From: a virus | Taxonomy: Duplodnaviria; Caudoviricetes | IMG/VR virus record: IMGVR_UViG_3300032007_000001 | Strand: one strand, 5' to 3' | DNA length: 64,000 nucleotides | In this document: positions 4,684 through 63,807 of the stretch, one piece after another | How the letters are laid out: each line of letters starts with the position of its first letter | Position numbering within the stretch: position 1 is the first letter of the stretch | The notes under the pieces: generated by a model | Database searches by the model: none | Seen by the model: the letters and a program-made list of their open reading frames with translations, nothing else | What the model was told of the DNA's origin: nothing | Program-made: the position numbers and the translations under genes

Positions 4684-4974
4684 TTATAGTCCTTTTCTTC
4701 TTTTTATTTGTTCTTTTTCATATATGTCATATAATTGTTTCAATAAATCTAATTTTTTTGCTTTTATTTTATTGTCTTCTGCTACTCTTTCTACATAACA
4801 CGGTGAACCATGATAAGATATATCTTCCTTGAAGCAAACTTTATCATCTTTTACATATAAAATATTTATATCGCTTCTTTCACCAAACTCATTGTGAAAG
4901 ATATGTTCTATCATTTCCAATTCTGACATTTGGATTTCTATATTTTTAATTATAGCATTTGTTGTTATATACAT
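4684..4974 (-). CDS. Small hypothetical protein, C-terminal GL family
   Basis: GGAGG RBS; ends KRRKGL*. Confidence 0.65.
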   Translation of the reverse strand: MYITTNAIIKNIEIQMSELEMIEHIFHNEFGERSDINILYVKDDKVCFKEDISYHGSPCYVERVAEDNKIKAKKLDLLKQLYDIYEKEQIKRRKGL

Positions 4975-5070
4975 AACATTTATCCTCCAGCCGTATCTCA
5001 GAATTCACAGTGTGTTCAAGAACAAAACAAATAAATAAAAGAGAGGTAATCCTCTCTATTTTTAATTTAT

Positions 5071-5145
5071 TGGCAGGAACTGCCCGAATCGAACAGGCGT
5101 CCACGAATTTGGAGTTCGTGATGCTAGCCACTACACCAAGTTCCT
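5071..5145 (-). tRNA. tRNA-Trp(CCA)
   Basis: Cloverleaf; anticodon arm ACGAA-CT CCA AA-TTCGT; encoded CCA end. Confidence 0.92.
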
Positions 5146-5151
5146 ATAAAA

Positions 5152-5227
5152 TGGAGCTGGCGATAGGACTCGGACCTACAACCTGCGGTTTACAAAACCG
5201 CTGCTCTGCCAATTGAGCTACGCCAGC
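5152..5227 (-). tRNA. tRNA-Thr(TGT)
   Basis: GCGGT-TT TGT AA-ACCGC; CCA end; T-loop TCCGAGT variant. Confidence 0.92.
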
Positions 5228-5232
5228 ATAAA

Positions 5233-5306
5233 TGGAGCGAATGATGGGAATCGAACCCACGTAATCAGCTTGGAAGGCTGAAATTCTACCATTGAATTAC
5301 ATCCGC
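5233..5306 (-). tRNA. tRNA-Gly(TCC)
   Basis: TCAGC-CT TCC AA-GCTGA; TCCA end. Confidence 0.93.
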
Positions 5307-5478
5307 ATTATTTTTTATGAAATCAAATTTTACAAATTAAATAAAACAATAATTGCAATAAATATGACTGGAATAAATGCACGAGAACGCATTCTTATTG
5401 TTTGCATTTTGTTCTTTAATTGCATTGTTTCTTTCTTAAATTCTGTGTTTTTATAAGTTTTCATTATTTATCTTCCTT

Positions 5479-5889
5479 TCAATTAAGAATTTTTAGTGCT
5501 TTTTCAATATCTTCTTTTTGCAATCCTTTGTTAGAATCAGTAAGTACAAGATTCGTTTCTGTCAATTCATCCATATCCTTATCGTCATCAATGATTACAA
5601 AAGATTCAATATCTTTATCTTTCATCCAGTCTTTTATTTCTGAACCGCGAGTTCCAGGAAGACTTCTTGTAGCACCTATAACTTCAGTATTAATTAATTT
5701 CATTTTGTTTTCTACTAATTTTCTTAATGAAGGAATTCCTCGCCAAGAAGAAGACAAAACAATTTTTGCATTTGTCTTTTTCACTAATTCTCCTAAAAGG
5801 TCCAAGTGACTTTGTGTTTCAAGAGTTTGTGAAAATTTATCATTTATAGAATTTAATACTCCGTCTATATCCAAAAATATGACTTTCAT
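5479..5889 (-). CDS. HAD-family phosphatase, RNA-repair (Swiss Army Knife HAD_SAK_2)-like
   Basis: FLDIDGVLN, IVLSSSWR, RGSEIKDW, FVIIDDD motifs; inserted within tRNA cluster. Confidence 0.85.
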   Translation of the reverse strand: MKVIFLDIDGVLNSINDKFSQTLETQSHLDLLGELVKKTNAKIVLSSSWRGIPSLRKLVENKMKLINTEVIGATRSLPGTRGSEIKDWMKDKDIESFVIIDDDKDMDELTETNLVLTDSNKGLQKEDIEKALKILN

Positions 5890-5907
5890 ATCTTTTCCTT
5901 TCTTAAA

Positions 5908-5996
5908 TGGCGGAGTGGGTGGGATTTGAACCCACGCAGGATTTCTCCTCTAACGATTTAGCAAACCGTCCTCTTCAACCACTTGAGTACCACTCC
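5908..5996 (-). tRNA. tRNA-Ser(GCT)
   Basis: ACGGT-TT GCT AA-ATCGT; long variable arm; GCCA end. Confidence 0.92.
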
Positions 5997-6002
5997 ATGT
6001 TA

Positions 6003-6078
6003 TGGTGGAGACAAGGGGAATCGAACCCCTGACCTCTTGCTTGCAAGGCAAGTGCTCTCCCAGTTGAGCTATGTCCCC
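6003..6078 (-). tRNA. tRNA-Ala(TGC)
   Basis: GGGGACA acceptor with G3:U70; CTTGC-CT TGC AA-GCAAG. Confidence 0.95.
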
Positions 6079-6082
6079 ATTA

Positions 6083-6482: not shown

Positions 6483-6746
6483 TTACAAACCAAATTCAAA
6501 AATAAATTTATTTTTCAAAGTAAGATTTTCATTAAAAATAAATTTATCTAAAATTTTCAAAATTGGAATTACTTTATCTTTTTTTCTTAAATAGGAAAAC
6601 ACTTCGTCCAAAAACGAAATATCCAACGTATGTTTTCTAACAATTCTAACGCAATCTTTTACAGAAACAATTTTTAGAAAATATAAAATTGTATCAGATA
6701 AAATTAATTCGTTATGCATATCAATCATCAAATAAAAGAATCGCAA
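6483..6746 (-). CDS. C-terminal GL family protein
   Basis: Ends NKFIFEFGL*; paralog of 6835..7119. Confidence 0.7.
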   Translation of the reverse strand: MRFFYLMIDMHNELILSDTILYFLKIVSVKDCVRIVRKHTLDISFLDEVFSYLRKKDKVIPILKILDKFIFNENLTLKNKFIFEFGL

Positions 6747-6834: not shown

Positions 6835-7119
6835 TCATAATCCAAATTCAAAAACGAAATGATTCTGAAGTTCGATATTTTTCTTATTAAATAAATTATA
6901 GAAAAAAGTAATAATTTTATGTTTTCTCTTTTCAATTATATATTGATAAATTTCATCCATCAATGACCATTTGGTAGTAAACTCCAAAATGGAAAAATTG
7001 TTAATATAAAAAATAATTGTATTTGATGGTTCTTCATTGTGACACAACAAATATTGCATCATATGATGATTATTTTCAGAAAATTGTCTCATTATATAAC
7101 CACTCATGCAAAACACCAA
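6835..7119 (-). CDS. C-terminal GL family protein
   Basis: Ends NHFVFEFGL*. Confidence 0.7.
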   Translation of the reverse strand: MVFCMSGYIMRQFSENNHHMMQYLLCHNEEPSNTIIFYINNFSILEFTTKWSLMDEIYQYIIEKRKHKIITFFYNLFNKKNIELQNHFVFEFGL

Positions 7120-8719: not shown

Positions 8720-9091
8720 GTGAGAGAAAAATACACAGATGATGATTTGAAAATTAAAATGCGTTGCGTGGAGAACATAAATCATTTTTATAATGAAATC
8801 ACATATTTTGTATATTTTACAATTTCTCTCACAAATGATAAAAGCAAAAAAATAAGTGGGATTATAGATTTCCATAATCTTATTTATAATTGTTGCGGCC
8901 ATTATGGACCATATAAGCTATATATAGAAAGAAATATTGATAATAGTTTGAATTCATTTTTACTCGGTTCTGCTAAAGCTAAAGATTTTGATTTTGTTAC
9001 ATACTTAAAAAACAATTATAATGAAAAAATAAAAGATGTCATCTCTTGTTTCATTATAAATAAAGTTTCAAAAATAATGTTTGGATTTTGA
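8720..9091 (+). CDS. C-terminal GL family protein
   Basis: GAGGAG RBS; ends KIMFGF*. Confidence 0.7.
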   Translation: MREKYTDDDLKIKMRCVENINHFYNEITYFVYFTISLTNDKSKKISGIIDFHNLIYNCCGHYGPYKLYIERNIDNSLNSFLLGSAKAKDFDFVTYLKNNYNEKIKDVISCFIINKVSKIMFGF

Positions 9092-9118
9092 AAGTGCACA
9101 AAAGGTGCACTTTTTTTA

Positions 9119-9147
9119 TTTACATTTTTTCTTTTTTATGGTATAAT
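9119..9147 (+). promoter_or_regulatory. sigmaA-type promoter of GL-family array
   Basis: TTTACA-N17-TATAAT with TGG extension, immediately after a terminator hairpin. Confidence 0.8.
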
Positions 9148-9175
9148 TTACAATAAAAAAAGGAAAAAATAATGA

Positions 9176-9505
9176 ATGCAAATTCAATTTAATGGTATTA
9201 CTGGAGAATTGAATATAGAAAGAGAACCAAGTCCATTTGCAAGAAATCATCTCAAACTTTCTTATGAATTTAGAAATAAATCGGAACAAATAAAAAATTG
9301 GTTTTATTTGGACCGCATGAAAGAATACATTTTTGGAAAAGAAAATTTCATTAGTAATTTTATGATATCGTTATTTGTAATAAAGAATCTACATGAAGAT
9401 AAAAAATTATATCGTGATTTAACTCAAAATAAAAGATTTGAATTATGTCAAGAATTACATAGATATTTCAAAACATATTTAGCTTTGGTGTATGTGGGGC
9501 TTTAA
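9176..9505 (+). CDS. C-terminal GL family protein
   Basis: Ends YLALVYVGL*; tandem paralog of 9508. Confidence 0.72.
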   Translation: MQIQFNGITGELNIEREPSPFARNHLKLSYEFRNKSEQIKNWFYLDRMKEYIFGKENFISNFMISLFVIKNLHEDKKLYRDLTQNKRFELCQELHRYFKTYLALVYVGL

Positions 9506-9507
9506 TT

Positions 9508-9846
9508 ATGGATATAAGATTTGAAGATATTACGTTAAAATTGAATATAAAAAAAGAAACTAGTCGTTTTGCTAGAGGACAAAATAGATTGGATTGGGAA
9601 ATGAAAAACGACCGTGGTGAAGAATTGAAAAGTTATTTTTACTTAAAAGACATAAGAAAATATTTGTTTGGTTATAGCGAAAGTTTTAGAAGCGATTTTG
9701 AAAGGTCTTTTTATGGGATTATAAATGATTCAAATAGAAACATGCAATTATATAAAGACATAATTTGGAATAAAAGAGATAAGTTTTATGATGCTATAGG
9801 CAATTATTTTATCGAATATCTTGCATTAAGGTCGATTGGGTTTTGA
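9508..9846 (+). CDS. C-terminal GL family protein
   Basis: Ends YLALRSIGF*. Confidence 0.72.
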   Translation: MDIRFEDITLKLNIKKETSRFARGQNRLDWEMKNDRGEELKSYFYLKDIRKYLFGYSESFRSDFERSFYGIINDSNRNMQLYKDIIWNKRDKFYDAIGNYFIEYLALRSIGF

Positions 9847-9847
9847 T

Positions 9848-10165
9848 ATGCAATTTAGAAAAAATATAAAAAATTTCCTAAATATGTTGGTTATTTCATA
9901 CAAAATGTACGATGATAAAAATAATTTGAAATATGTTGGAAACGTAATTGAACGAAAAGACATGTGTTATGAAAATATTACTATTGGAATAATGCATGAA
10001 AATACATTTAACAACTGTGTTAGGGAATTTGAAATGATTAAAAAAGATATAGTTCCAACTGCAAAAAGTTTATCAAAAGGAACGAATATATCTTTAAGTC
10101 ATGCGATTGAGTTTATTCAATTTTTATTGAAAGATGATTTGTTTATAAAAACAAGAGGATTGTAA
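9848..10165 (+). CDS. C-terminal GL family protein
   Basis: Ends IKTRGL*. Confidence 0.68.
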   Translation: MQFRKNIKNFLNMLVISYKMYDDKNNLKYVGNVIERKDMCYENITIGIMHENTFNNCVREFEMIKKDIVPTAKSLSKGTNISLSHAIEFIQFLLKDDLFIKTRGL

Positions 10166-10166
10166 A

Positions 10167-10793
10167 ATGAATTATATAGAATTGGAAGATTTGGATAATA
10201 TCATTTTTAGAAACAAAACTTATTTTAAGCATCTTGGCTATATACATAGCAATAAATTTATTAATGAAATTTTCAATACGACAAGCAATAAATACAATAT
10301 TTTCTTTTTCAAAGAAAGTATAAAAAATGGCATAAATATTAAGCATTATATTACAAGAAGAAACAAAAAAATAATAGCATATTGGCTTCATAGAAAACAA
10401 TGCTCGAGGATTTTGCAATGTTTCGATGAATTTATGATACATCATAGTATTCTTACAGACTTCGATGAAAAAAATGTAGATAAAAAATACATAAAAGAAT
10501 TTTGGGAAAATCATTCCATCGAAGAAATAGAAAACATGGATGAACAATGGTTTTTTGACCGTATGTTTTTTTATTCAAGAGTAATAGATTATTGGCATGT
10601 TTCTGACCCATATTATGCAAAAAATATGAGAAAAAAAGATGTTGATATTATTTTGTCAAGGGATTTTAGTAAGGCAAAATACTTGAGAGTAACGCCTGGC
10701 CAATGGAGAACAGAATATTGGCTCGAACCATTTTTTGATAAAAAGAATTTTGGCAATTTATATGATAGAAGTATATTCGGTTGGTTTTTATAA
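10167..10793 (+). CDS. ~205-aa 'MNY' paralog family member 1
   Basis: Shares MNY(I/L)(E/D), W.F(D/E)R..F and F.KK..G...D with 16121 and 37372; ends IFGWFL*. Confidence 0.75.
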   Translation: MNYIELEDLDNIIFRNKTYFKHLGYIHSNKFINEIFNTTSNKYNIFFFKESIKNGINIKHYITRRNKKIIAYWLHRKQCSRILQCFDEFMIHHSILTDFDEKNVDKKYIKEFWENHSIEEIENMDEQWFFDRMFFYSRVIDYWHVSDPYYAKNMRKKDVDIILSRDFSKAKYLRVTPGQWRTEYWLEPFFDKKNFGNLYDRSIFGWFL

Positions 10794-10802
10794 GGAGAAA
10801 CA

Positions 10803-11105
10803 ATGAATTTTAAGAACAAAAAAATATATAAAATTGATAACAAATATATTGCTATCAAATATTATTTGTATGAAGGAGACAATAAAATATATATTATTAT
10901 GTCTAAGAATAAATGTTTTGCTGAACACATGCATGGAGAATATTCTTTTGAAACGCCAACAATCGATGATATGTATTTGCACAACCTAAAAATAGAAAAG
11001 GATTTTTACATAACTGGGAAAGATGTTGGATTAAGAGATTTATTAAGATTAAATGTTGTTGTTAACGATTTTGTAAAATCATTGAATATATATTTTGGTT
11101 TGTAG
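10803..11105 (+). CDS. C-terminal GL family protein
   Basis: AAGGAG RBS; ends NIYFGL*. Confidence 0.72.
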   Translation: MNFKNKKIYKIDNKYIAIKYYLYEGDNKIYIIMSKNKCFAEHMHGEYSFETPTIDDMYLHNLKIEKDFYITGKDVGLRDLLRLNVVVNDFVKSLNIYFGL

Positions 11106-11190
11106 CGTGCAGTTTTTTATGCATAGAAAAAAATATTGATTTTCTATATAAAAACGTACTAATGGTTCACATTTCGCGAGATAAAATTTA
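11104..11190 (+). repeat. Dispersed ~90-bp intergenic element, copy A
   Basis: AGCGTGCAGTTTT...ACTAATGGTTCACA...CGAGATAAAA; related copies at 38545-38629 (-) and 56358-56441 (-). Confidence 0.8.
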
Positions 11191-11232
11191 TAAAAAAATT
11201 TAAGATATTAAAAAAATAAAAGGAGAATTACA

Positions 11233-11445
11233 ATGAGATTAGATGCATATGATTTAATAAATCAAGTAAAAGGATTGTCTGGCGATGAAAAAACAAAACA
11301 GACAGTAATTAGTTTACTTTACGCATTAAATGACCACGGATATAATTTTACTGTTTGCGATAGATGTGGTACAATAACAGATGAAAAATATGTATGCAGA
11401 AATTGTGGATACGATGATTCCATGATTGAGGATGACAGAGATTAA
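11233..11445 (+). CDS. Small Zn-ribbon protein
   Basis: CDRCG...CRNCG; AAGGAG RBS. Confidence 0.65.
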   Translation: MRLDAYDLINQVKGLSGDEKTKQTVISLLYALNDHGYNFTVCDRCGTITDEKYVCRNCGYDDSMIEDDRD

Positions 11446-11500
11446 AGAATATGAGCATATTTATTTTCGATATGCTCTTTTAAGTTGAAAGGAGAAATAT

Positions 11501-11761
11501 ATGAAAAGATATTGGGGCGTTATGCCAGGTGATGAAATAGACAAAACATTATATTTTAAGGAAGAAAATGGTACCAATGTAATCATTGATGTTGGCAAGA
11601 ATGGATGGACCGTTACATTTTGCGACCGTTCTATGATATATAAAGATAAGACACAAGATGTTCTTGACAATCTTAGAGATGCTATAAAACAAGCAGAATT
11701 TAAGGTTGGAAAGTTAACATTGATTTACAATACAGATAAAGAACTGGAAGAATTTAGATGA
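11501..11761 (+). CDS. Hypothetical protein
   Basis: AAAGGAG RBS. Confidence 0.65.
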   Translation: MKRYWGVMPGDEIDKTLYFKEENGTNVIIDVGKNGWTVTFCDRSMIYKDKTQDVLDNLRDAIKQAEFKVGKLTLIYNTDKELEEFR

Positions 11762-11848
11762 TCTTAAAAATATTGCTTAATGGATATTTTGTTGGTCTTA
11801 TTACAGGAATAATTATAACAGCAGTTGTTGGGGTTATAATAACAAAAA

Positions 11849-12160
11849 ATGAAGAAGACGATTCAGATAAATAAAACGGCATTTATTGATTTTATTCTTA
11901 TAAAAAATAAAGTTGTGAATTCATATCTTGATTGTTATACAATAAAATATTTTATTTACTGTAATGAGGGTGTAATTACAAAAGGTGATATAAACGTTTT
12001 TTCATTAAGAGATATTATTTTTGGAAAAACTGATTTATGCATTAAATTTATACATTCTACATCATATAAGGAATTAGCAAAAATTGATTATAAAACATAC
12101 ATTTTCAGTGCGATTCAAGAATATAGAAAATATATGATTAAAAGGTTTATAGGATATTAA
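11849..12160 (+). CDS. C-terminal GL family protein
   Basis: Ends KRFIGY*. Confidence 0.7.
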   Translation: MKKTIQINKTAFIDFILIKNKVVNSYLDCYTIKYFIYCNEGVITKGDINVFSLRDIIFGKTDLCIKFIHSTSYKELAKIDYKTYIFSAIQEYRKYMIKRFIGY

Positions 12161-12161
12161 G

Positions 12162-12488
12162 ATGAAAGAAATGACAATTCCAATAAACGAAAAAACGAAT
12201 ATATATTTAAGCTTAAATAAATTTAGAACAAATCATATTAGAAATTATTTGTTTGAATATAAAATTTTTGATAAAAAAGAATCAATATCTGGTAGTATTG
12301 GTTCTTTTTCTATAAATGAATTTTCTTTTGAAAATATAAATTTGCATGGACATTTCTTAGAATCTATATATATGAAATCACCCAAAACTGAAAAAATTTA
12401 TGATACTATAATAAGTGAAAAACATAATATTTATAGAGCAATGCTTTTATATAGAAGATTTATAATTAAAATGAATATTGGGTTGTGA
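12162..12488 (+). CDS. C-terminal GL family protein
   Basis: Ends KMNIGL*. Confidence 0.7.
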   Translation: MKEMTIPINEKTNIYLSLNKFRTNHIRNYLFEYKIFDKKESISGSIGSFSINEFSFENINLHGHFLESIYMKSPKTEKIYDTIISEKHNIYRAMLLYRRFIIKMNIGL

Positions 12489-12499
12489 GGAGTAATAAA

Positions 12500-12712
12500 A
12501 TGAAAAACGATAATTTGAAATTTTTAAGAGAAATGTACCCAAAAGGAACAAAGGTACAATTGGATTTTATGGATGATATTCAAGCTCCTCATATTGGAAG
12601 TATTGGAATAGTAGAATGCGTTGATGATGCTTGTCAAATTCATGTTAAATGGGAAAACGGTTCTCGTCTGGCGTTAATATCAGAATGCGATAAATTTCAT
12701 ATTGTGGAGTGA
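12500..12712 (+). CDS. DUF4314-like small SH3-type protein
   Basis: YPKGTKVQLDFMDD..AP.IG..G.V..VDD..QIHVKWENGS.LALI pattern. Confidence 0.75.
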   Translation: MKNDNLKFLREMYPKGTKVQLDFMDDIQAPHIGSIGIVECVDDACQIHVKWENGSRLALISECDKFHIVE

Positions 12713-12989
12713 AAAAAATGATAAAAGAAAAAGACATTATAATGTTCAATACTTTAATGAAACAATTAAATGATTTACAAGAAAAAATAAAAGATTATAA
12801 TCAAAACGCTTCTATAAATTTGTTTTCGTGTTGTGATAAAAATGAGAATGATTATTGTGCTCTATTTATAACAGATGGAAATGTCAAAGAAATAAAAAAT
12901 ATATTTATCACTGGCAAAAAATTAGAAAACGCAGAATTCTATAGTAGAAGTGATATAAAAACATTGATAGAAAATATAAAGGAAAAATT

Positions 12990-13313
12990 ATGAATACAAC
13001 CATGCAAATTAATGATATTATAATAGAAATTGATATCATTAAAAATGGTGCAATAAGAATATATTACACTATTTATGATGGAAAAGACATTATAAAAAAT
13101 TGGTTTGTTTGTGAAGAATTACATAGATATATGTCCTGTTGGGAAAATATGTTCTATTGGGAAAGTATGGTTAATGCTTTTTTAAGAAATTTAAGTATTT
13201 ATTATGAACGACCAATATATAAAAAAATCAAATATAATAATGATTATTTGGTATTTTTAAGCGAATTGGAAAAATTTTTCGATAAATATGTAAGAATATG
13301 TTGTGGATTATAA
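12990..13313 (+). CDS. C-terminal GL family protein
   Basis: Ends VRICCGL*. Confidence 0.7.
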   Translation: MNTTMQINDIIIEIDIIKNGAIRIYYTIYDGKDIIKNWFVCEELHRYMSCWENMFYWESMVNAFLRNLSIYYERPIYKKIKYNNDYLVFLSELEKFFDKYVRICCGL

Positions 13314-13570
13314 GGAGAAATAAATGAATAAATCAAGAGCAAAAATTATTGGATTAAATGCATGTATCGATGCAATTGGAAGAGAGTATTATTTTGAACA
13401 TAAAAAAGACGCAATGTCATGTTATGGCATTGTTGGAAACGAAATGATGTGTGTCGCTGGTATTGGGAAAATAAAACGAAATTTTGGAGAAATAGATGAA
13501 TTTGAGAAACAGGTTATATGTTACGTTAATTTAACAACTGGTAAAGTTAGATTTTAAGAGGAGACATATA

Positions 13571-13909
13571 ATGGTAGCACATATAGGTGGGAAAAAATGC
13601 AAAGTAAACGCTTCTTTCAAAGACAACAATGATTGCTATTCTGATTTATTTAGATTATTAGTCGTAATTACTGGGAATAGATATAACAATGATAATGACG
13701 GTGAAAGATTTTCGTTTTCTTTTGTATTGCCAAGAAATGTAAATAAAATAAAACAATATATAGATGCATCAATTTATTTGAATGTTGGATTAATAAGAAC
13801 TTCATGTAGTCAACAACATATGAAAATGTTTTTATTGGAACATAAAAATGAAATTGCAAATTTGGCTATAAAATCTTATATATATGGAATTAAAAAACAT
13901 GGGATGTAA
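13571..13909 (+). CDS. C-terminal GL family protein (GM variant)
   Basis: GAGGAG RBS; ends IKKHGM*. Confidence 0.65.
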   Translation: MVAHIGGKKCKVNASFKDNNDCYSDLFRLLVVITGNRYNNDNDGERFSFSFVLPRNVNKIKQYIDASIYLNVGLIRTSCSQQHMKMFLLEHKNEIANLAIKSYIYGIKKHGM

Positions 13910-13958
13910 TAGTAATGGAAAAATTATTATAAAAAAATAAAATTTATTTACTTTTCTA

Positions 13959-13987
13959 TTTACATTTTTTTAATTTTGTTGTATAAT
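13959..13987 (+). promoter_or_regulatory. sigmaA-type promoter
   Basis: TTTACA-N17-TATAAT. Confidence 0.75.
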
Positions 13988-14020
13988 GATAATGTAAATA
14001 TTTTATTTTGAGGAGAAATT

Positions 14021-14971
14021 ATGAAAAACAATATCTTATATACTCATGATGATTTAGATGGAGTTGGTTGTGCTATTCTAGCAAAACTTGCTTTTGAAGA
14101 TGACGTTGATATTGTTTATTGCAAAGATAAGGATGAATGTACAAAATCTTTACTTTCTCTTATCCCAAACCATTTATTCAAGGCTTGTGAAAGGATTTTT
14201 GTAACAGATTTAAGTTTTGATAAAGAAAAATTTAGTGAAAACAAAAAAATTTTTTCCAAACTTAAAATATTTGACCATCATGAAACAGCTATCGTTGATT
14301 TTGAAAAAGAAAAATATGCATATGTAAAAAAAGACATTGACGGTGTCCAAACATGCGGAACAGAATTGTTTTATATTTATTTGAAAAGAAAAGGTTTTAT
14401 TGAAGATAGAAATTTTTTCGTTGAACAAATTAGATTATACGATACTTGGGAATGGAATAAATTCCCAAGCAAATTACCGTATTATCTTAATCTTTTAAGG
14501 TATACAATTGGAATTACTGGATTTGTCAATACATTTACAGAAAGATTAATGAAAAATGATGTTAATGAACTTAACATTTTTAATCAATATGAAAGAGATA
14601 TTATTGAACTTAAATTAAAAGAAAACGAAAGAGAAATAAAAAATTATTTATCAGATGTTAGAAGAGTAAAAACGAAGTATGGTACATTTGGATTTGTATT
14701 CGTTGGAAACAACTGTGATGTATCAAATCTTGGACATGCAATTTGTGATTTAGAAGATATTGATATTGCGGTTATGGCAAAACCAAATTCTGGTAAAATG
14801 TCATTTAGGACAAACAGAAACGATATTCACATTGGATTAATGTTAAAAGAATTATTTGGTGATTCTGCTGGTGGGCATTCTTCAAGTGCTGGTTGCAAAG
14901 TAAAAGATATGACTGTGCAAAGAGTAATTTGTCAAATGATGCAACCATTTGGGAATATTGAAATAGATTAA
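14021..14971 (+). CDS. DHH/DHHA1 phosphoesterase (NrnB-like oligoribonuclease)
   Basis: THDDLDGVGC, VTDLS, FDHH, YDTW, SFRT, GGH motifs. Confidence 0.88.
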   Translation: MKNNILYTHDDLDGVGCAILAKLAFEDDVDIVYCKDKDECTKSLLSLIPNHLFKACERIFVTDLSFDKEKFSENKKIFSKLKIFDHHETAIVDFEKEKYAYVKKDIDGVQTCGTELFYIYLKRKGFIEDRNFFVEQIRLYDTWEWNKFPSKLPYYLNLLRYTIGITGFVNTFTERLMKNDVNELNIFNQYERDIIELKLKENEREIKNYLSDVRRVKTKYGTFGFVFVGNNCDVSNLGHAICDLEDIDIAVMAKPNSGKMSFRTNRNDIHIGLMLKELFGDSAGGHSSSAGCKVKDMTVQRVICQMMQPFGNIEID

Positions 14972-14973
14972 AA

Positions 14974-15381
14974 ATGAAAACAAAAATTGTTCGAAAAAAT
15001 GAAAAAGATATTGAAATTAAGGTTTTGTTTAGTGGAGAAACTAATGCAAAAGTATTTATTAAGATTCAATATGATGAAATTTATATAAGAGAACCATCAA
15101 AGTACCACACTCTTTTATTTAATTTCTATTTTTTCAGAGATTTTTTACAAAAGATAGACGAACATGTATATAATGTAATACTTTATCATTTTTTGAAAAA
15201 GAAAGATAAAAAAGTAGATGATGAAACAATTTCCCAAAATTTTTTTTGGACAGAAAATGGAGAAGAGGAATGTAATGAACACAACAATCATTTACAAACA
15301 TTCATATTAGATAGAATAGACGTTATAACAAATTCATTAAAAGATGCTTATTTATTAACAATACGTAAGAATGGTTTTTAA
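14974..15381 (+). CDS. C-terminal GL family protein
   Basis: Ends IRKNGF*. Confidence 0.68.
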   Translation: MKTKIVRKNEKDIEIKVLFSGETNAKVFIKIQYDEIYIREPSKYHTLLFNFYFFRDFLQKIDEHVYNVILYHFLKKKDKKVDDETISQNFFWTENGEEECNEHNNHLQTFILDRIDVITNSLKDAYLLTIRKNGF

Positions 15382-15384
15382 GAG

Positions 15385-15774
15385 GTGATTATTATGACAG
15401 CGGCTAACAGCAAGGTTTATCAGAAAAATATTTTCGCAATGGGCAAGCTTATCAAAAAGAAAAGAGAAGAATATAACATATCTGCAAAATTTTTAGCTAC
15501 AGTGGCAAATGTAGATGTTTCTGTTATTCATAAATTGGAAAACGAACATGCACCAGCCAGTATAGAAGTCATTGAGAGGCTCATTGTGGCTCTTGAATTT
15601 ACACACAAATTGAATGCTATGGCAAATTTGTATGATGATTTGGATGAACATGAAAAAGCAGAATCGATGAGAAAAGCAAGACCGTTGTTTGAAAAACGGA
15701 AAATGCAGAAACTCTTAGATAAGCCTCTTGGTTCATTTAAGATTATTCACCCATTAGCAAAAAAAGAGGCGTAA
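15385..15774 (+). CDS. XRE-family helix-turn-helix protein
   Basis: IKKKREEYNISAKFLATVANVDVSVIHKLEN...SIEVIERL. Confidence 0.75.
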   Translation: MIIMTAANSKVYQKNIFAMGKLIKKKREEYNISAKFLATVANVDVSVIHKLENEHAPASIEVIERLIVALEFTHKLNAMANLYDDLDEHEKAESMRKARPLFEKRKMQKLLDKPLGSFKIIHPLAKKEA

Positions 15775-15800
15775 AGCCTCTTTTTTAATGGAGAAAAAAT

Positions 15801-16112
15801 ATGATTAACTTAAAAAATATAAGAATAAAAAATCACGAATATAAAATTTTTAATGATGAACAATATAATGCAACCATTTATTACGAAATTGATTATAAAG
15901 AAATGGAATTTAAGAATTTTGTTCTTGCTGATACAATAAAATTTTCTCATGATAAATTTAAGAAAAGAGTCCTTGGATCTTTGCATAAATTTTCAAATTA
16001 TGTTGAATTTTGGTTTTTTGTTCAAAAACATATAGATGCAATTGCATTCGAACTAGCTTTTGTAACTGGTAAAAAACTTAAACACTATGAAATAAGTAAT
16101 GATGGATTATAG
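15801..16112 (+). CDS. C-terminal GL family protein
   Basis: Ends SNDGL*. Confidence 0.65.
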   Translation: MINLKNIRIKNHEYKIFNDEQYNATIYYEIDYKEMEFKNFVLADTIKFSHDKFKKRVLGSLHKFSNYVEFWFFVQKHIDAIAFELAFVTGKKLKHYEISNDGL

Positions 16113-16120
16113 GAGGTTAT

Positions 16121-16777: not shown

Positions 16778-16858
16778 AAATTGTATAAACAAAATTTTGC
16801 CGCTTATAAGCGGCATTTTATTTACATTTGTTCACACATAATATAATATAAATATTAG

Positions 16859-17185: not shown

Positions 17186-17186
17186 A

Positions 17187-18082: not shown

Positions 18083-18238
18083 ATAAAGAAACAATCATAG
18101 AAATACTTGAAAATGAAATCAATTGCGTTAAAGCTGCAGAATATTGCACCAGAGAATGTAATAAATGTTTTCTCGTTAAAAAGCCTGAAGACATTATAAA
18201 TGCTTTAACTGTAGCTATAAAAACATTGGAGAAAAACT

Positions 18239-46845: not shown

Positions 46846-46846
46846 G

Positions 46847-47128: not shown

Positions 47129-47131
47129 GAT

Positions 47132-47467: not shown

Positions 47468-47468
47468 T

Positions 47469-52184: not shown

Positions 52185-52493
52185 TTAATATCCGTAATAT
52201 TTCTTATATATAAAATGATAAAAGTCACTCAGGTACACTTCAACGTCACTCAAACACTTGTTTTTTATCTCTTCTTTTATGTCATCTATACTTTCGTTTA
52301 TGTTATTCAATATCCTTCGTTTCAATTTCAAGAAATTATAATCATGAAATAAATCAACTTCAATGTTGCTACCGGCGTGTTTGGATAACTGATAATTCAA
52401 GAAAAATGTATAGGAAAAAATCCTAATATTACCATAATATGAAGTAATAAAAAAATATACTGTCATATTATTATTTTTATATATCTTTTCCAT
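52185..52493 (-). CDS. C-terminal GL family protein
   Basis: Ends KKYYGY*. Confidence 0.68.
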   Translation of the reverse strand: MEKIYKNNNMTVYFFITSYYGNIRIFSYTFFLNYQLSKHAGSNIEVDLFHDYNFLKLKRRILNNINESIDDIKEEIKNKCLSDVEVYLSDFYHFIYKKYYGY

Positions 52494-52496
52494 GAA

Positions 52497-52661
52497 TCAA
52501 TACCCAAAATCTTTCAAAAACATTTTCCTTAGCCTTACATATATTCCGCTATCGTTCTTCTTACACGTTTCTTCGAATACTTTGTCTATCGTTATGTTCG
52601 TATAAGCAAAAAACCCAAACCAACAGACAAAGTACTCTACTGACTTTTCTCTATTCGTCAT
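52497..52661 (-). CDS. 54-aa C-terminal GL family protein (below ORF-track cutoff)
   Basis: MTNREKSVEYF...RKMFLKDFGY*; overlaps phosphatase stop. Confidence 0.55.
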   Translation of the reverse strand: MTNREKSVEYFVCWFGFFAYTNITIDKVFEETCKKNDSGIYVRLRKMFLKDFGY

Positions 52662-53310
52662 AATCTTCCTCTATATCATCTTGTATATACTTCTTCGTTT
52701 CTATATTGAAGCATGTAATTTTCCCCTTGTACCGATAACTACCAGTGTCCAGCATATATATATTATTCTTCAATATCAATGGCTTATTATAATCCTCTTC
52801 CAAGCATTGCGTAGACGTATGCCCAACTACGATTATGTCCTCTCCTTCGTAATTAGCAAAGAAGCTTTCTCTTATCCATAGCAAATCTTCTTTTATCTGT
52901 TTGTCCAATCCATAAAAAGGATTTATCCCAGCATGGACAAATATATACTTCCCAATCCTATACCATAACGGCAAATTCTCTACCCATTCTATTAGTTCAT
53001 CAAACTCTCCTCGCGGCAATTTATCTAATTGTTTTTTAGTCGTATCAAATCCATTGTAAGTCCAAGTATTGTCAAGGCCTTTATAAAAATTTATCATCAT
53101 ATCTTCATGATTGCCCATCAATGCTATTACATTACTGTATTTCTCTGTCAATTCCTTGACATACTTCAAACATTCAATAGATTTTTCTCCACGGTCTATA
53201 TAATCACCCAAAAATATCAAATAATCTTTTTCAAAATCTATCTTGACTTTTCCCATTAAAGACATCAGTTTATCATACATTCCATGTATATCGCCAATAG
53301 CATATATCAT
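52651..53310 (-). CDS. PPP-family Ser/Thr metallophosphatase (lambda NinI-like)
   Basis: GDIHG, GDYIDRG, GNHE, FVHAG, VGHT, LDTG motifs. Confidence 0.92.
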   Translation of the reverse strand: MIYAIGDIHGMYDKLMSLMGKVKIDFEKDYLIFLGDYIDRGEKSIECLKYVKELTEKYSNVIALMGNHEDMMINFYKGLDNTWTYNGFDTTKKQLDKLPRGEFDELIEWVENLPLWYRIGKYIFVHAGINPFYGLDKQIKEDLLWIRESFFANYEGEDIIVVGHTSTQCLEEDYNKPLILKNNIYMLDTGSYRYKGKITCFNIETKKYIQDDIEEDYDE

Positions 53311-53399
53311 TTCTACCACCTCTAAATTCAATTATATATTCAAATAAAAACTTTGTAAATACTTTTATTTTGTTTATATAAACTACCACAGCGAGGTAT

Positions 53400-54080
53400 A
53401 TGCCTATGTCTATCGATACAGTGAAGGAATCACTAAGCAACTTGGTATCTTCTGGAGAAATCAATAACAAAACGCAAGAAGAACTGAGTGATATCTTATA
53501 CAATTTTTATTTATCATTAAAATATAGTAATGAACATCAAAACAATAATTCTGTTATTGTTAGGACTTTATCAAACGATGAATACAGTAAATATTTAATG
53601 AACAGCACATTCGGTGGGTCAATTGTCATGAAAGATGAGAACGTATTCCACTTCTGTGACAAAGACGGCGCATCCACTCTTTTGTATTATCTAAACAAAG
53701 ATTATACTGCGCATGATAATAAATTATATAATAACCCAAATATTTATAAAAGATATACATATGGTACTGGCGGTAATTGGTTTTTTGGTCATTTTGTATT
53801 TATATACGAATTAAAGTTAAATAACAAAAACAACAACTGCACATTAAGAAAAACAAAAAAATCTGTTTTGGATATTTTTGACGCACCTTCAACTTATAAT
53901 AAACTTGACATTGAAAGTTCACGCGAAGTTAATAAAAATTTTACTGGATATTTTAATCAAAGAACACCAAAATTCAGCAATTTGTCAGTTGACCCACGTT
54001 ATACATGCGATATATTGTCTGGGTTTAGGCCAATTTTTCAATATCTTGACAACAAAAAATCAACCAATATTTTTAGTTAA
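53400..54080 (+). CDS. FRP-motif paralog family member 2
   Basis: VRTLSNDEY...TFGGSI; GFRPIFQYLDNKKSTNIF. Confidence 0.7.
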   Translation: MPMSIDTVKESLSNLVSSGEINNKTQEELSDILYNFYLSLKYSNEHQNNNSVIVRTLSNDEYSKYLMNSTFGGSIVMKDENVFHFCDKDGASTLLYYLNKDYTAHDNKLYNNPNIYKRYTYGTGGNWFFGHFVFIYELKLNNKNNNCTLRKTKKSVLDIFDAPSTYNKLDIESSREVNKNFTGYFNQRTPKFSNLSVDPRYTCDILSGFRPIFQYLDNKKSTNIFS

Positions 54081-54706: not shown

Positions 54707-54983
54707 TTATAATCCAATTACAACCTTCTGAACTTGTTTTGAAAACAATACTAAACAATCATATATATATTCTTTGTTTTTAATAATTTCAACGTTACAA
54801 TCACTACAAGCAATCTTTCTTAAATTATCAATATACGAAGCATTATATTTTCCAAACTGCAAAAATATATCTATCCAAAAATTATCATTTTTTATAATAA
54901 AAAAATTTTTCTCTATAGTATATCATATCGTCAATATATACGCATTTTATCGATATATTGTTTTTCTTATATATCTTTCTCAT
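54707..54983 (-). pseudogene. Frameshifted GL-family gene (one extra nt in A5T7 run)
   Basis: AGGAG RBS; MRKIYKKNN...EKFF then shifted frame IIKNDNFW...KVVIGL*. Confidence 0.65.
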
Positions 54984-55367: not shown

Positions 55368-55625
55368 TCATAATCCTATTTTCACTATATACTTATCTAA
55401 CGGATAAAAAGATTTTACTACATCCAATATATCTATTCTTTCTAAAATACAATCTACATGCCCAATCAAATGATTCTTAAAATATTCTTTGTCAAAATTT
55501 TTTAAGTCTTCAGTAATAAAATAAGAATAGTTTTCATCATAATAAATAGCAAACATCAATGGATATTTATAAAAATTATGCAAAGATACACAATATTCTT
55601 TCGTTTTTACGCGTCCAAGAATCAT
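55368..55625 (-). CDS. C-terminal GL family protein (FYPL subfamily)
   Basis: Ends FYPLDKYIVKIGL*. Confidence 0.72.
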   Translation of the reverse strand: MILGRVKTKEYCVSLHNFYKYPLMFAIYYDENYSYFITEDLKNFDKEYFKNHLIGHVDCILERIDILDVVKSFYPLDKYIVKIGL

Positions 55626-55855
55626 AAGCTCGTCTTCCCTTTTACAACAGCATGATTCATGCATACTTTCACAATATCATATACCATGTCAATCTCACTT
55701 TTTCCAGCGGCTACTGTTATTTGGTATTCTCCAGAAAACATAACTTCAGCACAGTCATTTTTTTCATCATAACATATATAAATAATATCACTACATTCAT
55801 TTGTATTTGCTATAACAGTTTCTAATAAATCACAAATATTATTTTTACTACTCAT
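55622..55855 (-). CDS. Small protein, paralog of 54448..54684
   Basis: AGGAG RBS; shared motifs. Confidence 0.7.
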   Translation of the reverse strand: MSSKNNICDLLETVIANTNECSDIIYICYDEKNDCAEVMFSGEYQITVAAGKSEIDMVYDIVKVCMNHAVVKGKTSL

Positions 55856-57649: not shown

Positions 57650-58348
57650 ATGATATTATCACAAAATGAATTGGAGCAAATTAGAAACGCATCTTCTTTG
57701 GAAGAAGTACGGAACTTTATTTTTTCTTCAGTAGAAAACAACGAAAATGATATTACTGGTGACATTGTTAATATTGGGATATTGAGCAGGAAAGAGTATA
57801 TCAAATATATATGCAATGATACGTTAGACGGGTCTATAACGAAAAAAAACGCTAGCGTATGGAATTACTATAATGGTAAATATGGAAGTGCCTATTATGA
57901 AGAAATGCAGTATCATTATAATCCCTTAAAAAAAGGAGTACAAGTAAATTCCCTAATGGGGAAAATCACACCGTATCATAGTTTGGAAGAATTAACTTCC
58001 GATGGATATATAAGCGCAAGAGATTCAAGGACAGACATTTATACGTATACATTTGAAGCATTTAATGATAATATAAATAATAAAACATTTTCAAATACTG
58101 AAAACGAAAACGTAGTGTTTGAATTTTGGGGTGGATATGGCGGAGATATAACCTGGTATGATTATAAAAAAGTAGAAATAGAATATCAAATCGATAAAAC
58201 GTTTACAACGTCAACGCAAAACGTTACTATTAAGAAGCGATATGGTGGGGAGAATGGTTGTTATTATGGAAAAGTTATTTTTTGTTGTTCTTTTAGACCA
58301 ATCTTTCGTTATGTAGATAATAGAAAAAGTAAAGATATTTTTAAGTAA
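57650..58348 (+). CDS. FRP-motif paralog family member 3
   Basis: IGILSRKEY...TLDGSI; FRPIFRYVDNRKSKDIF. Confidence 0.7.
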   Translation: MILSQNELEQIRNASSLEEVRNFIFSSVENNENDITGDIVNIGILSRKEYIKYICNDTLDGSITKKNASVWNYYNGKYGSAYYEEMQYHYNPLKKGVQVNSLMGKITPYHSLEELTSDGYISARDSRTDIYTYTFEAFNDNINNKTFSNTENENVVFEFWGGYGGDITWYDYKKVEIEYQIDKTFTTSTQNVTIKKRYGGENGCYYGKVIFCCSFRPIFRYVDNRKSKDIFK

Positions 58349-61462: not shown

Positions 61463-61466
61463 AAGT

Positions 61467-61850
61467 ATGAGACATTTAATTAAGAAAGCTGAGAAGCTGA
61501 GCACGGAAGAGATAAGGAATATGACAGACGATGAAGTCATAAAGTTATATAAGGAATTAAGTAAGAAAGGTATGACGATAGACTTCATTTGTGATGTATC
61601 TGATGGATATACAATACCGGTAGACGAGATATTCTTTGAAAATCTTGGAGACTGGAGAACGGATATAGATTCGGAGTATAGCCCGTTGAATTATGGTTTT
61701 GATCCAGATGAAGCCGAAGGATGGGAGTACTATACATTTGATGATGATTTTAGTCCTGGGCATTATCCGAAACCTGCCACAAAAGAGCAGTGCGGAGAAT
61801 TTTTGAGAAGCTGCGCTGAAGAAATGGAAGAATATATGGAGGAACTGTAA
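61467..61850 (+). CDS. MRHLIKKA-leader family acidic protein
   Basis: Begins MRHLIKKAEK. Confidence 0.72.
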   Translation: MRHLIKKAEKLSTEEIRNMTDDEVIKLYKELSKKGMTIDFICDVSDGYTIPVDEIFFENLGDWRTDIDSEYSPLNYGFDPDEAEGWEYYTFDDDFSPGHYPKPATKEQCGEFLRSCAEEMEEYMEEL

Positions 61851-61865
61851 AAGTTCCTCTTTTTA

Positions 61866-61894
61866 TTTACAAAAAAATTAATGTATGGTATAAT
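61866..61894 (+). promoter_or_regulatory. sigmaA-type promoter of GL-family array
   Basis: TTTACA-N17-TATAAT with TGG. Confidence 0.8.
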
Positions 61895-61910
61895 TTCATT
61901 GGTGATAGCA

Positions 61911-62165
61911 ATGTTAATGATGTATGCTAAAGAACATATAGAAGTAAGATATAAATATTTTTCAATAGAATATGTGATAGAAACAAATAATGTACCGATA
62001 CATATGTTTTTCAAAATAGGAGAATTGAGTAGCATTGAAAATTTTTTACATAGGATTTCGCATTTTACTTCAATGAAGGAAGATATGTTAAAACCGTATG
62101 CTAAGTTTTTTGTAAATTACTTTAATGAAGTAATGAAGAAAAGTTATGTGAGGTATGGGTTATGA
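61911..62165 (+). CDS. C-terminal GL family protein
   Basis: Ends NEVMKKSYVRYGL*. Confidence 0.7.
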   Translation: MLMMYAKEHIEVRYKYFSIEYVIETNNVPIHMFFKIGELSSIENFLHRISHFTSMKEDMLKPYAKFFVNYFNEVMKKSYVRYGL

Positions 62166-62413
62166 ATAAAGAAGACATAGAAGTGAGGTACGGAAAATTT
62201 TATATAGAATTTATATTGAATACCGGTTATGTACCGACGCTTATACCTTTTAATGTGGGGAAATTGATAAATAACAAGGACTTTGAAAAAAAGATATTCT
62301 TGCTTTTTTCATTTGAGATTAAGAAAAGAGAGCAATTTCTTAAGAATAAAAAAATTTTAATTGAATATATGAATGAAGTAATGAAGAAAAGCTATGTCAG
62401 GTACGGGTTATGA
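62162..62413 (+). CDS. C-terminal GL family protein
   Basis: Identical last 13 aa to preceding gene. Confidence 0.72.
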   Translation: MNKEDIEVRYGKFYIEFILNTGYVPTLIPFNVGKLINNKDFEKKIFLLFSFEIKKREQFLKNKKILIEYMNEVMKKSYVRYGL

Positions 62414-62691
62414 AGAATTATTATATTTGCAAAAAAAATTTTGAAGTGATGTTTTGCTATGGGTCGTTAACAAAGTGGTTCAAGGTGTACATCAAAGATT
62501 TTTCCAATGACAATTTTGCAGTAGTGGAATTGAGTGACGAGAAGTACATGTTCGAAGACGCTGAGAATCATTATTTTGTATCGAGCATAGATAAGAATAC
62601 ATTGACGATGAGGAAGTTCATTGAAGAAAATATGGAAAAAATGTTTGACGAATACCAATGCAAACGATTGAAGTATATATATGGCTTGTAG
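62410..62691 (+). CDS. C-terminal GL family protein
   Basis: Ends KYIYGL*. Confidence 0.7.
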   Translation: MKNYYICKKNFEVMFCYGSLTKWFKVYIKDFSNDNFAVVELSDEKYMFEDAENHYFVSSIDKNTLTMRKFIEENMEKMFDEYQCKRLKYIYGL

Positions 62692-62700
62692 GAGAATGTA

Positions 62701-62976
62701 ATGAATTTGAGAAAATATATTAAAACGAAATATAGCATACGCTTAAAGGACTTTTATAATCGTCATAGTCTTGTATTTGAGATTCATTACTCGAATACTT
62801 GGTGGTATTTTGAGCCTAAGAATATGGAAATGTTTGACAAAGATGATTTTGATACGAATACATTTGTAAGTGGATATATTAAGTTGCTTGAAGATTGTGA
62901 CATATATGAAGATATAGTGAAAAGTATAAAAACATTTTATCCATTGTGGAGATATGTAAAGAGGATAGGGTTATGA
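62701..62976 (+). CDS. C-terminal GL family protein (FYPL subfamily)
   Basis: Ends FYPLWRYVKRIGL*. Confidence 0.72.
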   Translation: MNLRKYIKTKYSIRLKDFYNRHSLVFEIHYSNTWWYFEPKNMEMFDKDDFDTNTFVSGYIKLLEDCDIYEDIVKSIKTFYPLWRYVKRIGL

Positions 62977-63251
62977 CAATCAAAGAATACAAGTGTAAAG
63001 CATTTACACTGAAGCTATGTGATTTTGATAGGGATAGAGAGATATACTTTAGATTGTCAGTGGAATGTGGTGGAAAGTGGAAAACCGACTATATATTCGA
63101 TACGCATAATTTCGGGATAGATAGGCTAGACAAGAAAAGATTTTTGAAGGCGATAGAGAAGCATAATATCAATCTGAACATAAAGGAATTGACAGAAGCT
63201 ATATATGATTTCTATCCATTCAGCCAGTATATAAGGATAATCGGGCTATGA
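62973..63251 (+). CDS. C-terminal GL family protein (FYP subfamily)
   Basis: Ends FYPFSQYIRIIGL*. Confidence 0.72.
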   Translation: MTIKEYKCKAFTLKLCDFDRDREIYFRLSVECGGKWKTDYIFDTHNFGIDRLDKKRFLKAIEKHNINLNIKELTEAIYDFYPFSQYIRIIGL

Positions 63252-63529
63252 TTATGAAGAAGTACATCGATGAAGAATTTGTCTTGGAGCTATGCGATTT
63301 CAGTAATGCTTATCGCATGGATAAGTTGGATACGTTTTTTCACGTATTTGACAAAGAATGTAATGGTAACTATATATTCGAAGCTCGTAAATTTGGGGTC
63401 AAAGAATTTGATGAAAAAAAATTCTTGGAAGTCATGAGAAAAAAAGATATGAAAATGGATATACATAAATTGATAGAAGTGATGAAGACTTTTTATCCAT
63501 TGAATTATGTCAGGAGCATGGGATTATGA
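63248..63529 (+). CDS. C-terminal GL family protein (FYPL subfamily)
   Basis: Ends FYPLNYVRSMGL*. Confidence 0.72.
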   Translation: MIMKKYIDEEFVLELCDFSNAYRMDKLDTFFHVFDKECNGNYIFEARKFGVKEFDEKKFLEVMRKKDMKMDIHKLIEVMKTFYPLNYVRSMGL

Positions 63530-63807
63530 TAATTAAAGATTATTACGGAGAAAAATATTCTTTATGGTTATGCGATTTTGATATAAATAAAGAGATGTTT
63601 TTTCGTTTGTCTGTATATCCTAATGAAAATGGATGGGCAAAGCATTATATATTTGAGACTCGAAATTTAGGAATTAATAAATTAGATAGGGGAAAATTTA
63701 AGAAAACTATTGAAAAATATAATATTAAATTGGATGCAATTGAATTGATGAATATAATTGAAAAATTTTATCCATTCAATCAATATATAAATGTGGTTGG
63801 GTTATGA
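63526..63807 (+). CDS. C-terminal GL family protein (FYP subfamily)
   Basis: Ends FYPFNQYINVVGL*. Confidence 0.72.
   Translation: MIIKDYYGEKYSLWLCDFDINKEMFFRLSVYPNENGWAKHYIFETRNLGINKLDRGKFKKTIEKYNIKLDAIELMNIIEKFYPFNQYINVVGL

Follow-up and report, generated by a model that had tools for sequence, protein, structure and literature searches.

A constant glycine-hydrophobic carboxyl end on dozens of small proteins encoded in a 64-kb stretch of a gut megaphage

Why do dozens of small proteins encoded in one stretch of viral DNA stop exactly one residue after a glycine, and are they members of one family or unrelated proteins that carry a common tag? The stretch, hereafter called the window, comprises 64,000 nucleotides (nt) of a virus of the Caudoviricetes (Duplodnaviria; IMG/VR record IMGVR_UViG_3300032007_000001). 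An earlier note on this DNA had listed about 57 small open reading frames (ORFs) that end in Gly-X-stop, with X mostly leucine, and had proposed that the ending is a short portable docking peptide, perhaps for ClpP, on bodies that are otherwise unrelated. We arrive at a different reading, to which we give about an even chance of being right: the proteins would form one greatly expanded, fast-diverging early-gene family, and the constant end (here called the tail) would be the last helix, with its cap, of a small domain that all of them share.

The terminal glycine-hydrophobic ending

Non-overlapping ORFs of 45 amino acids (aa) or more, selected greedily, number 142. Of these, 55 have a glycine as the penultimate residue and 51 end in G-[LFYVIM], against 1.9 expected from the internal frequency of this dipeptide (1.3%; binomial p = 5.9e-58). 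The last residue is hydrophobic in 51 of the 55 ORFs with a penultimate glycine, and none of the tails ends in Ala-Ala. Leucine follows the glycine in 36 of the 51 tails, as the earlier note had seen, followed by F (6), Y (5), V (2), M (1) and I (1). The ending is present on 49 of 92 ORFs with a size of 70–140 aa. Among 157 shadow ORFs discarded from the set just 8 have a penultimate glycine, and four of these resemble true members lost by overlap (26585-26911, 37990-38208, 38198-38350 and 54707-54862, all on the minus strand). When these four and the two Gly-Glu variants at 35751-36056 and 46847-47128 are added, our recount also comes to about 57. The tail family, with proteins of about 100 residues, makes up more than one third of the genes in the window.

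All four glycine codons are used at the penultimate position (GGA 26, GGG 15, GGT 7, GGC 3), five codons encode the terminal leucine, and the 51 tail genes terminate with TGA (29), TAA (18) or TAG (4). Since 20 of the tails, in addition, are not followed by a closely coupled gene, it is the protein and not the DNA that is constrained, as had been claimed before. The opposite reading, namely that the GGN codon is the ribosome-binding site of the next gene or that the ORFs are not genes at all, is to our minds practically negligible. It draws on the close packing of the genes: 25 of the 51 tails overlap the next gene or are ≤3 nt away from it, and endings in TTA-TGA give rise to ATGA overlaps, with TGA stops in 29 of 51 tail genes versus 27 of 91. 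This excess of TGA reflects the ATGA overlaps and nothing further. The remaining 20 of the 51 tails, on the other hand, are followed by a convergent gene, by no gene or by a gap of >15 nt; many stop codons are followed by a GGAG site of their own or by a terminator; and the spacing from the glycine codon to the next start ranges from 4 nt to >40 nt. Because of these uncoupled tails, several with a separate Shine-Dalgarno sequence or terminator, we ruled out that the motif is a by-product of ribosome-binding sites or gene overlap. The constraint at positions -1, -3, -6 and -7 is moreover one of residue class and not of codon, homologues from other samples retain the ending, and one subfamily gave a confident fold. 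Alternative coding of TAG, as in Lak megaphages, was rejected as well: in the four tail genes that stop at TAG the codon is followed by a ribosome-binding site and ATG.

Conservation is anchored at the C-terminus and extends back for about 13 residues. Position -1 is L, less often F or Y, position -2 is G and position -3 is I, Y, F or V; positions -4 and -5 are often K or R, -6 and -7 are hydrophobic, -8 to -10 are K, N or R, and -11 to -13 are F, Y or L. Positions -5 to -8 have hardly any acidic residues, and at -6 a hydrophobic residue is found in 61% and lysine in 25% of cases. The tail has a helical hydrophobic moment of 1.02, compared to 0.77 for internal 14-mers, and a net charge of +1.4, compared to -0.8 in other small ORFs; none of 49 members has a transmembrane-like segment. 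A hidden Markov model built from the 16 C-terminal residues found no internal copy at ≥5 bits, and none among 270 ORFs of phage G. In paralog pairs with 50–75% identity the identity falls from 0.87 in the last three residues to 0.65 at -4 to -13 and to 0.47 further upstream, which bears out the claim that the bodies diverge much faster than the end. The idea of a short peptide is not supported: what is conserved is amphipathic, 13 residues long, and resembles the last helix of a domain together with a glycine cap. The earlier note had named an integral part of one shared fold as the finding that would speak against its tag, and this resemblance to the domain's last helix comes close to it.

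One family or a tag on unrelated proteins

Searches with BLAST and phmmer sorted the tail genes into clusters of 2–9 members. In six of the seven BLAST clusters the members include adjacent genes, which points to tandem duplication as the generator. The proteins match no Pfam or PHROGs entry in any member, and no AAA+ or other Pfam domain was found in 54 members. Sequence periodicity gives a common picture: in the tail-bearing proteins as a group, the first 35% is mainly of beta periodicity and the last 50% mainly of alpha periodicity, with the alpha signal highest shortly before the end, whereas the other small ORFs of the window lack this beta-then-alpha pattern. When the last 13 residues were removed, the bodies scored slightly higher against each other than reversed controls (p = 0.007), and their best local alignments were more collinear (p = 0.0009).

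Structure models were calculated for members of the two best-defined subfamilies, named YPL and YYGL. The AlphaFold model of the YPL protein is confident, with a predicted local distance difference test (pLDDT) of 87.5 and a predicted template modelling score (pTM) of 0.78, and has strands at 2-7, 11-19, 22-30 and 33-37, a helix at 47-53, a strand at 54-57 and a helix at 69-77, followed by the tail. The YYGL model is poor (pLDDT 56) and consists of four strands, a short helix and a helix at 75-95 that reaches position -4. The order of the elements agrees between the two models. A homodimer prediction for the YPL protein scored 0.01, which is evidence neither way.

The claim that the bodies are unrelated outside small subfamilies is therefore correct for sequence searches and incorrect for architecture, since size, periodicity and element order are common. 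For the same reason the portable tag on unrelated bodies is not supported: tail-bearing proteins share their size, the beta-then-alpha periodicity and the predicted order of elements, and none contains a known domain. One group of genes deserves mention here. Three genes of 202-218 aa, located inside the tail-gene arrays at 10167-10793 (plus), 16121-16777 (plus) and 37372-37980 (minus), encode proteins that start with MNYI[DE]L and end with FG..L, with the glycine two to four residues from the end, and jackhmmer links them weakly to the YPL group. We considered them as members of the tail family and rejected this; they are a separate family, in which a single member, the 218-aa protein encoded at 16121-16777, happens to have a GL ending. 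As the two relatives of this 218-aa protein end differently, and as no known domain was found, we see no case in the window of the tail being added to an unrelated protein.

The confident YPL model has no convincing counterpart among known folds. Foldseek gave no match to solved or viral structures. Structural alignment ranked polo boxes best (Z 5.2), with Pur-alpha, PC4, p22/Mam33 and MRP1/2 at Z 3.5-4.3, all within the range that is common for unrelated chains; polo box, Pur-alpha and PC4 are folds that bind peptides or nucleic acids and have, like the model, a layout of four strands plus helix. The ESM Atlas yielded weak shape matches only, among them a DUF4160 cluster at a template modelling score of 0.6, again in the range common for unrelated chains, and its own model of the YPL protein is poor.

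How far do the relatives extend? Among 1.84 billion representatives a profile of the YPL group matched 12 proteins, and in a collection of 5.8 billion it matched 10; with a profile of the YYGL group, 11 proteins were found. All profile matches lie on a 504,291-bp contig with the ENA accession ERZ27256887, the one from a bovine gut sample on which the proteins of the window are recorded, or on short contigs of related strains, and every full-length homologue found in this way stops right after G plus a hydrophobic residue. GenBank phages gave no tblastn match for one YPL member. The degenerate pattern FYPL..Y[IV]..[IV]GL-stop had no match in IMG/VR, and its two matches in JGI metagenomes are due to chance, neither being at an ORF end. 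The relatives are confined to the clade of this phage in bovine and sheep gut samples, and the many paralogs in tandem arrays within this one clade have the form of a lineage-specific expansion. One of the strain contigs, L001, carries the tail on 20 of its 29 ORFs.

A survey of jumbo phages mentions that some phages have ClpX and ClpP and that a zinc-ribbon family has expanded to 35 copies in phage G, and contains nothing that resembles the tail family (PMC7824862); the literature that we searched describes no such phage protein family either. The zinc-ribbon family of Bacillus phage G, with about 35 copies (PMC7824862), is comparable in that dozens of small paralogs lie in arrays in one giant phage genome, and in that the presumed roles of both families are in regulation or host conflict. 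In contrast to it, the tail family has diverged past profile detection, has an invariant Gly-hydrophobic end and lacks a metal-binding motif. Within the first 200 kb of the 498 kb of phage G no enrichment of the ending is seen (1 of 270 ORFs), and the GenBank phages are without a match to the one subfamily searched by tblastn.

Taken together, about one third of the genes of the window belong to a family without a Pfam or PHROG entry, a convincing fold match or a description in the searched literature, and this family would rank among the largest paralog expansions known in a phage. In the reading with about even chances, some 55 real genes, probably expressed early, would form one clade-restricted family of proteins with about 100 residues each; tandem duplication would have enlarged it, and its members would then have diverged past sequence recognition. 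In the common plan, four N-terminal strands would form a beta meander and helices would come after it, the final one basic, aromatic and amphipathic. The ending, hydrophobic at -3, Gly at -2, hydrophobic at -1 with the free carboxyl group and mostly hydrophobic at -6, would have the form of a Schellman-type C-cap, the protein stopping at the cap. Given the shared plan and a capped last helix, the apparent tag would be the constant terminal element of a shared small domain and not an added peptide. The proteins may be soluble cytoplasmic binders made from host-type promoters, in which variable sheet faces would serve diverse targets while the constant helix end would give stability and possibly one common contact. 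A partner common to the constant end is possible. A megaphage genome would in this way be filled by one small early gene, duplicated in tandem and diverged to an extreme degree around a fixed C-terminal end.

Glycine termination of helices, according to work of Aurora, Srinivasan and Rose from 1994, reportedly puts the glycine at C' and brings about a hydrophobic contact between C'' and C3. The 13-residue end fits such a cap: the glycine at -2 would take the place of C', the hydrophobic residue at -1 that of C'', and position -6, which is mostly hydrophobic, that of C3, at the end of an amphipathic helix. L, F, Y, V, M or I stands at -1 in 51 of 55 cases, where G at -2 is given by selection. 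Alpha periodicity peaks before the end, and the low-confidence YYGL model has a helix that reaches -4, whereas the confident YPL model shows none over its last seven residues. A Schellman cap is, on the other hand, a structural detail and not a family, and by itself leaves the lack of any C-terminal extension unexplained.

Several observations weigh against the capped helix of a single family. Jackhmmer runs on tail-trimmed bodies leave 45 of 81 members unlinked, so that common descent rests on architecture, size and array structure, and hhalign found no similarity between the YPL and YYGL subfamilies (probability 0.1). Of the two models that agree in element order, that of the YYGL protein has low confidence. 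The YPL model is confident, but its last seven residues are non-helical and its pLDDT drops from 76 (residues 81-90) to 42 at the last residue; to judge by this model, the YPL end resembles a cap less than it does a free tail and would be at least partly free. It is rare for a helix cap to be what a family conserves most, and the fact that no member extends further at its C-terminus suggests recognition of the free carboxyl end itself. The early expression of the tail genes, finally, is probable, as judged from their promoters only. Should the end nevertheless be a cap and nothing else, the family would be a clean natural example of which residues survive when the rest of a fold is free to change.

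Possible readers of the carboxyl end

A free end of this kind could be a common docking handle, in which the helix-Gly-hydrophobic carboxyl terminus is read by one hub and the family is an adaptor or effector library with a shared plug. Candidates for the hub are the phage's own ClpX-type unfoldase, a protease, the sliding clamp or another host hub. We regard the handle as a tentative possibility, and it overlaps with the capped helix because the end can be structural and a handle at once. It would account for the invariant glycine at -2 and for the fact that each homologue stops exactly one residue later, for the falling confidence along the end of the YPL model and for the higher conservation of the end than of the body in diverged paralogs. 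C-terminal plugs have precedents in HslU, which docks on HslV, in the HbYX and GQYL ends of proteasomal ATPases, which dock on 20S proteasomes, in the SspB tail that binds the ClpX N-domain and in the QLVLGL end of Pol IV that binds the beta clamp. All of these resemble the tail in being a short hydrophobic C-terminus that plugs into a hub with its carboxylate free, and LGL makes up the last three residues of the Pol IV end. They differ from it in that the tail family has no Tyr at -2 and no Gln at -6, and the consensus motifs are not matched.

ClpX, ClpP, PDZ, TPR and clamp genes were not found in the window, and a search with the ClpX-like gp258 of phage G returned bacterial ClpX and not that of the megaphage. 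Phage G encodes ClpP-like and ClpX-like genes, which counts in favour of the handle; the low frequency of the ending in its first 200 kb speaks against it, and since phage G has ClpXP without enrichment of the tail there, ClpXP alone does not predict the tail. If one hub does read the plug, which is again conceivable rather than probable, the phage would possess a library in which over 80 adaptors or self-timed effectors, all evolving fast, have a single handle, and the handle would bring the common partner, and what dozens of host-takeover proteins act on, within direct experimental reach.

Such an arrangement has its parallel in large eukaryotic viruses. In poxvirus ankyrin/PRANC proteins (F-box-like) and in giant-virus F-box/BTB proteins the constant module is a known domain and the partner is Skp1/Cullin. 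These families share with ours a variable target-binding body with a constant C-terminal module and a large number of paralogs, but the constant part of the tail family amounts to just about 13 residues. If the plug for one hub is true, the tail family would be the bacterial-virus counterpart of the F-box families.

The specific form proposed earlier seems to us very improbable. In it, the hydrophobic-Gly-Leu/Phe end would imitate the loop with IGF/IGL of Clp ATPases and fill the clefts of host ClpP, so that proteolysis is redirected or blocked. IGF loops dock in hydrophobic clefts of ClpP (PMC7112952), and the tail has the same hydrophobic-Gly-hydrophobic tripeptide: position -3 is hydrophobic in 38 of the 51 tails. 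The exact [LIV]-G-[FL] tripeptide, however, occurs in only 14 of the 51, and most tails have Tyr, Phe, Cys, Asn or Ser at -3. In ClpX and ClpA the tripeptide is internal, on a loop of a hexameric AAA+ ring (PMC7112952), while in the tail family it is the free C-terminus of a monomer-sized protein of about 100 residues without an AAA+ domain. The conserved unit comprises 13 residues and not 3, and terminal IGF mimics in phages were not found in the searched literature.

The end might also be a shared degron: the basic stretch with its non-polar carboxyl end would be a signal for ClpXP or a similar protease, resembling the MuA-type RRKKAI class, by which the early proteins would be removed jointly at a fixed time. 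The charge of +1.4, the few acidic residues at -5 to -8, the non-polar last residue and the early-type promoters are in line with this reading, as is the phage's own tmRNA (transfer-messenger RNA; tag DNDYVAIAA), which shows investment in C-terminal tagging pathways. We nevertheless find the degron unlikely. Flynn et al. are said to have defined classes of ClpX recognition signals in 2003, and the known ClpX signals, ssrA-like (LAA) or MuA-like (a basic stretch and a non-polar end), do not require Gly at -2; the strict amphipathic pattern is left unexplained, too.

The same amphipathic pattern could bring the proteins to the inner face of the membrane by a basic and aromatic end helix, similar to MinD or FtsA. 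The hydrophobic moment (1.02 vs 0.77), the charge of +1.4 and the aromatic residues are those of an amphipathic basic helix. Any membrane contact would be peripheral, as transmembrane segments are absent. Targeting helices, however, tolerate shifts in register and need no invariant glycine one residue before the stop, and in the model the hydrophobic face would be needed to cover the small sheet; membrane targeting therefore appears quite improbable to us, if marginally less so than plugging of ClpP.

Gene arrays and genomic setting

The arrays lie where the earlier note had placed them, and the promoters described there were found again: tight arrays stand behind TTTACA-N17-TATAAT, and TTTACA-N16-18-TATAAT occurs in 19 exact copies in the window versus 0.4 expected, mostly with an extended -10 element (TGnTATAAT). 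An N17 example with extended -10 is located at 9119-9147 on the plus strand, and further copies are found at 13959, 35673 (minus), 36676 (minus), 38480 (minus), 43219, 45866 (minus) and 61866. They are promoters of the sigma-70/sigma-A type, that is, of host type. Next to the tail genes lie those for a PARP/WGR enzyme, for phosphoesterases of DHH and calcineurin type and for a helix-turn-helix regulator, and together with the host-type promoters this suggests a role of the family in host take-over or counter-defence, on inference only.

At lower coordinates than the arrays lies a single minus-strand gene at 4684-4974 (96 aa, ending RRKGL) with a terminator-like hairpin after it, followed by two adjacent minus-strand paralogs at 6483-6746 and 6835-7119 that both end in FEFGL and form a BLAST cluster. 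The largest array, with 16 tail genes on the plus strand, spans 8720-18595. Its genes are located at 8720-9091, 9176-9505, 9508-9846, 9836-10165, 10803-11105, 11849-12160, 12162-12488, 12990-13313, 13571-13909, 14974-15381, 15801-16112, 16121-16777 (the 218-aa gene of the different family), 16859-17185, 17187-17477, 17789-18082 and 18239-18595. Interspersed are a DHH phosphoesterase (14021-14971) and an HTH_3 regulator (15385-15774).

Four groups follow on the minus and plus strands in the middle of the window. Six minus-strand genes make up the array at 26084-28158 (26084-26356, 26353-26601, 26585-26911, 27193-27549, 27536-27820 and 27817-28158). Three tail genes at 33419-34448 on the minus strand (33419-33739, 33749-34126 and 34116-34448) lie directly downstream of the PARP/WGR gene at 34451-35650 and form with it one promoter-driven operon. 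The PARP/WGR protein, encoded on the minus strand, combines a WGR with a PARP catalytic domain, has its own consensus promoter at 35673-35701 and is co-transcribed with the three tail genes. The next array of six, at 35751-38350 on the minus strand, consists of 35751-36056 (ending IGE), 36053-36373, 36743-37045 (YPL subfamily), 37033-37371, 37990-38208 and 38198-38350. Behind the promoter at 43219-43247, six plus-strand genes span 43260-45362, namely 43260-43604, 43607-43897, 43887-44168, 44153-44461, 44458-44766 (the modelled member of the YYGL subfamily) and 45069-45362 (YPL subfamily).

The array of six at 45914-47777 is again on the minus strand (45914-46234, 46254-46601, 46558-46857, 46847-47128, which ends NGE, 47132-47485 and 47469-47777), and four of its six genes are detectable paralogs. 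Two minus-strand genes occupy 52185-52661, the first (52185-52493) ending in YYGY and the second (52497-52661, 54 aa) in DFGY; a calcineurin-like metallophosphoesterase at 52651-53331 (minus; E = 9e-23) adjoins them. A 51-aa ORF at 54707-54862 (minus), ending in VIGL, is an uncertain gene, and 55368-55664 (minus) belongs to the YPL subfamily. The last array contains seven plus-strand genes at 61881-63807, with a promoter at 61866-61894. Three of them (61881-62165, 62162-62413 and 62410-62691) precede four tandem YPL genes at 62701-62976 (the member modelled with pLDDT 87.5), 62946-63251, 63248-63529 and 63526-63807. In strain contig L001 this array extends past the window.

The window is AT-rich, with a G+C content of about 27%, and carries 13 tRNA genes in three clusters plus the one tmRNA gene (28816-29179, minus). 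The sequencing runs that bear the DNA are bovine and sheep gut metagenomes, and one metatranscriptome run contains 11% of the sampled words. A near relative of the window was not found at the DNA level among GenBank phages, and no relative of a 657-aa neighbour protein was found in IMG/VR. Besides the genes already described, the window encodes a chemoreceptor-like protein, radical SAM enzymes and a tail-collar protein. The chemoreceptor-like protein, of methyl-accepting chemotaxis type (20665-22368, plus), has an sCache_3_3 sensor and an MCP signalling domain (E = 8e-36) and is unusual cargo for a phage, and a HAD domain of the 'Swiss Army Knife' RNA-repair type is encoded at 5479-5889 (minus; E = 1.5e-27).

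Other conserved C-terminal ends were noted in the same DNA. A second paralog family of 190-252 aa, with the conserved end Y[VIM]DN.KS.N[IL][FY]x, has three copies in the window, at 51396-52109 (minus; without a match in Pfam or PHROG), 53400-54080 (plus) and 57650-58348 (plus), and five further copies on strain contig L001 (3737-7585). Three successive plus-strand ORFs of 205, 71 and 93 aa at 23904-25006 have yet another common end, [AK]PLGEWP or KPLAEW. A pair of plus-strand paralogs at 432-1463 and 2435-3634, with a peptidase-U32-like gene (1453-2442) between them, ends in G[QK][KR]FY[TG]LDFIEK and lies upstream of a group of radical SAM paralogs (3683-4675, 29435-30409 and 32156-33016).

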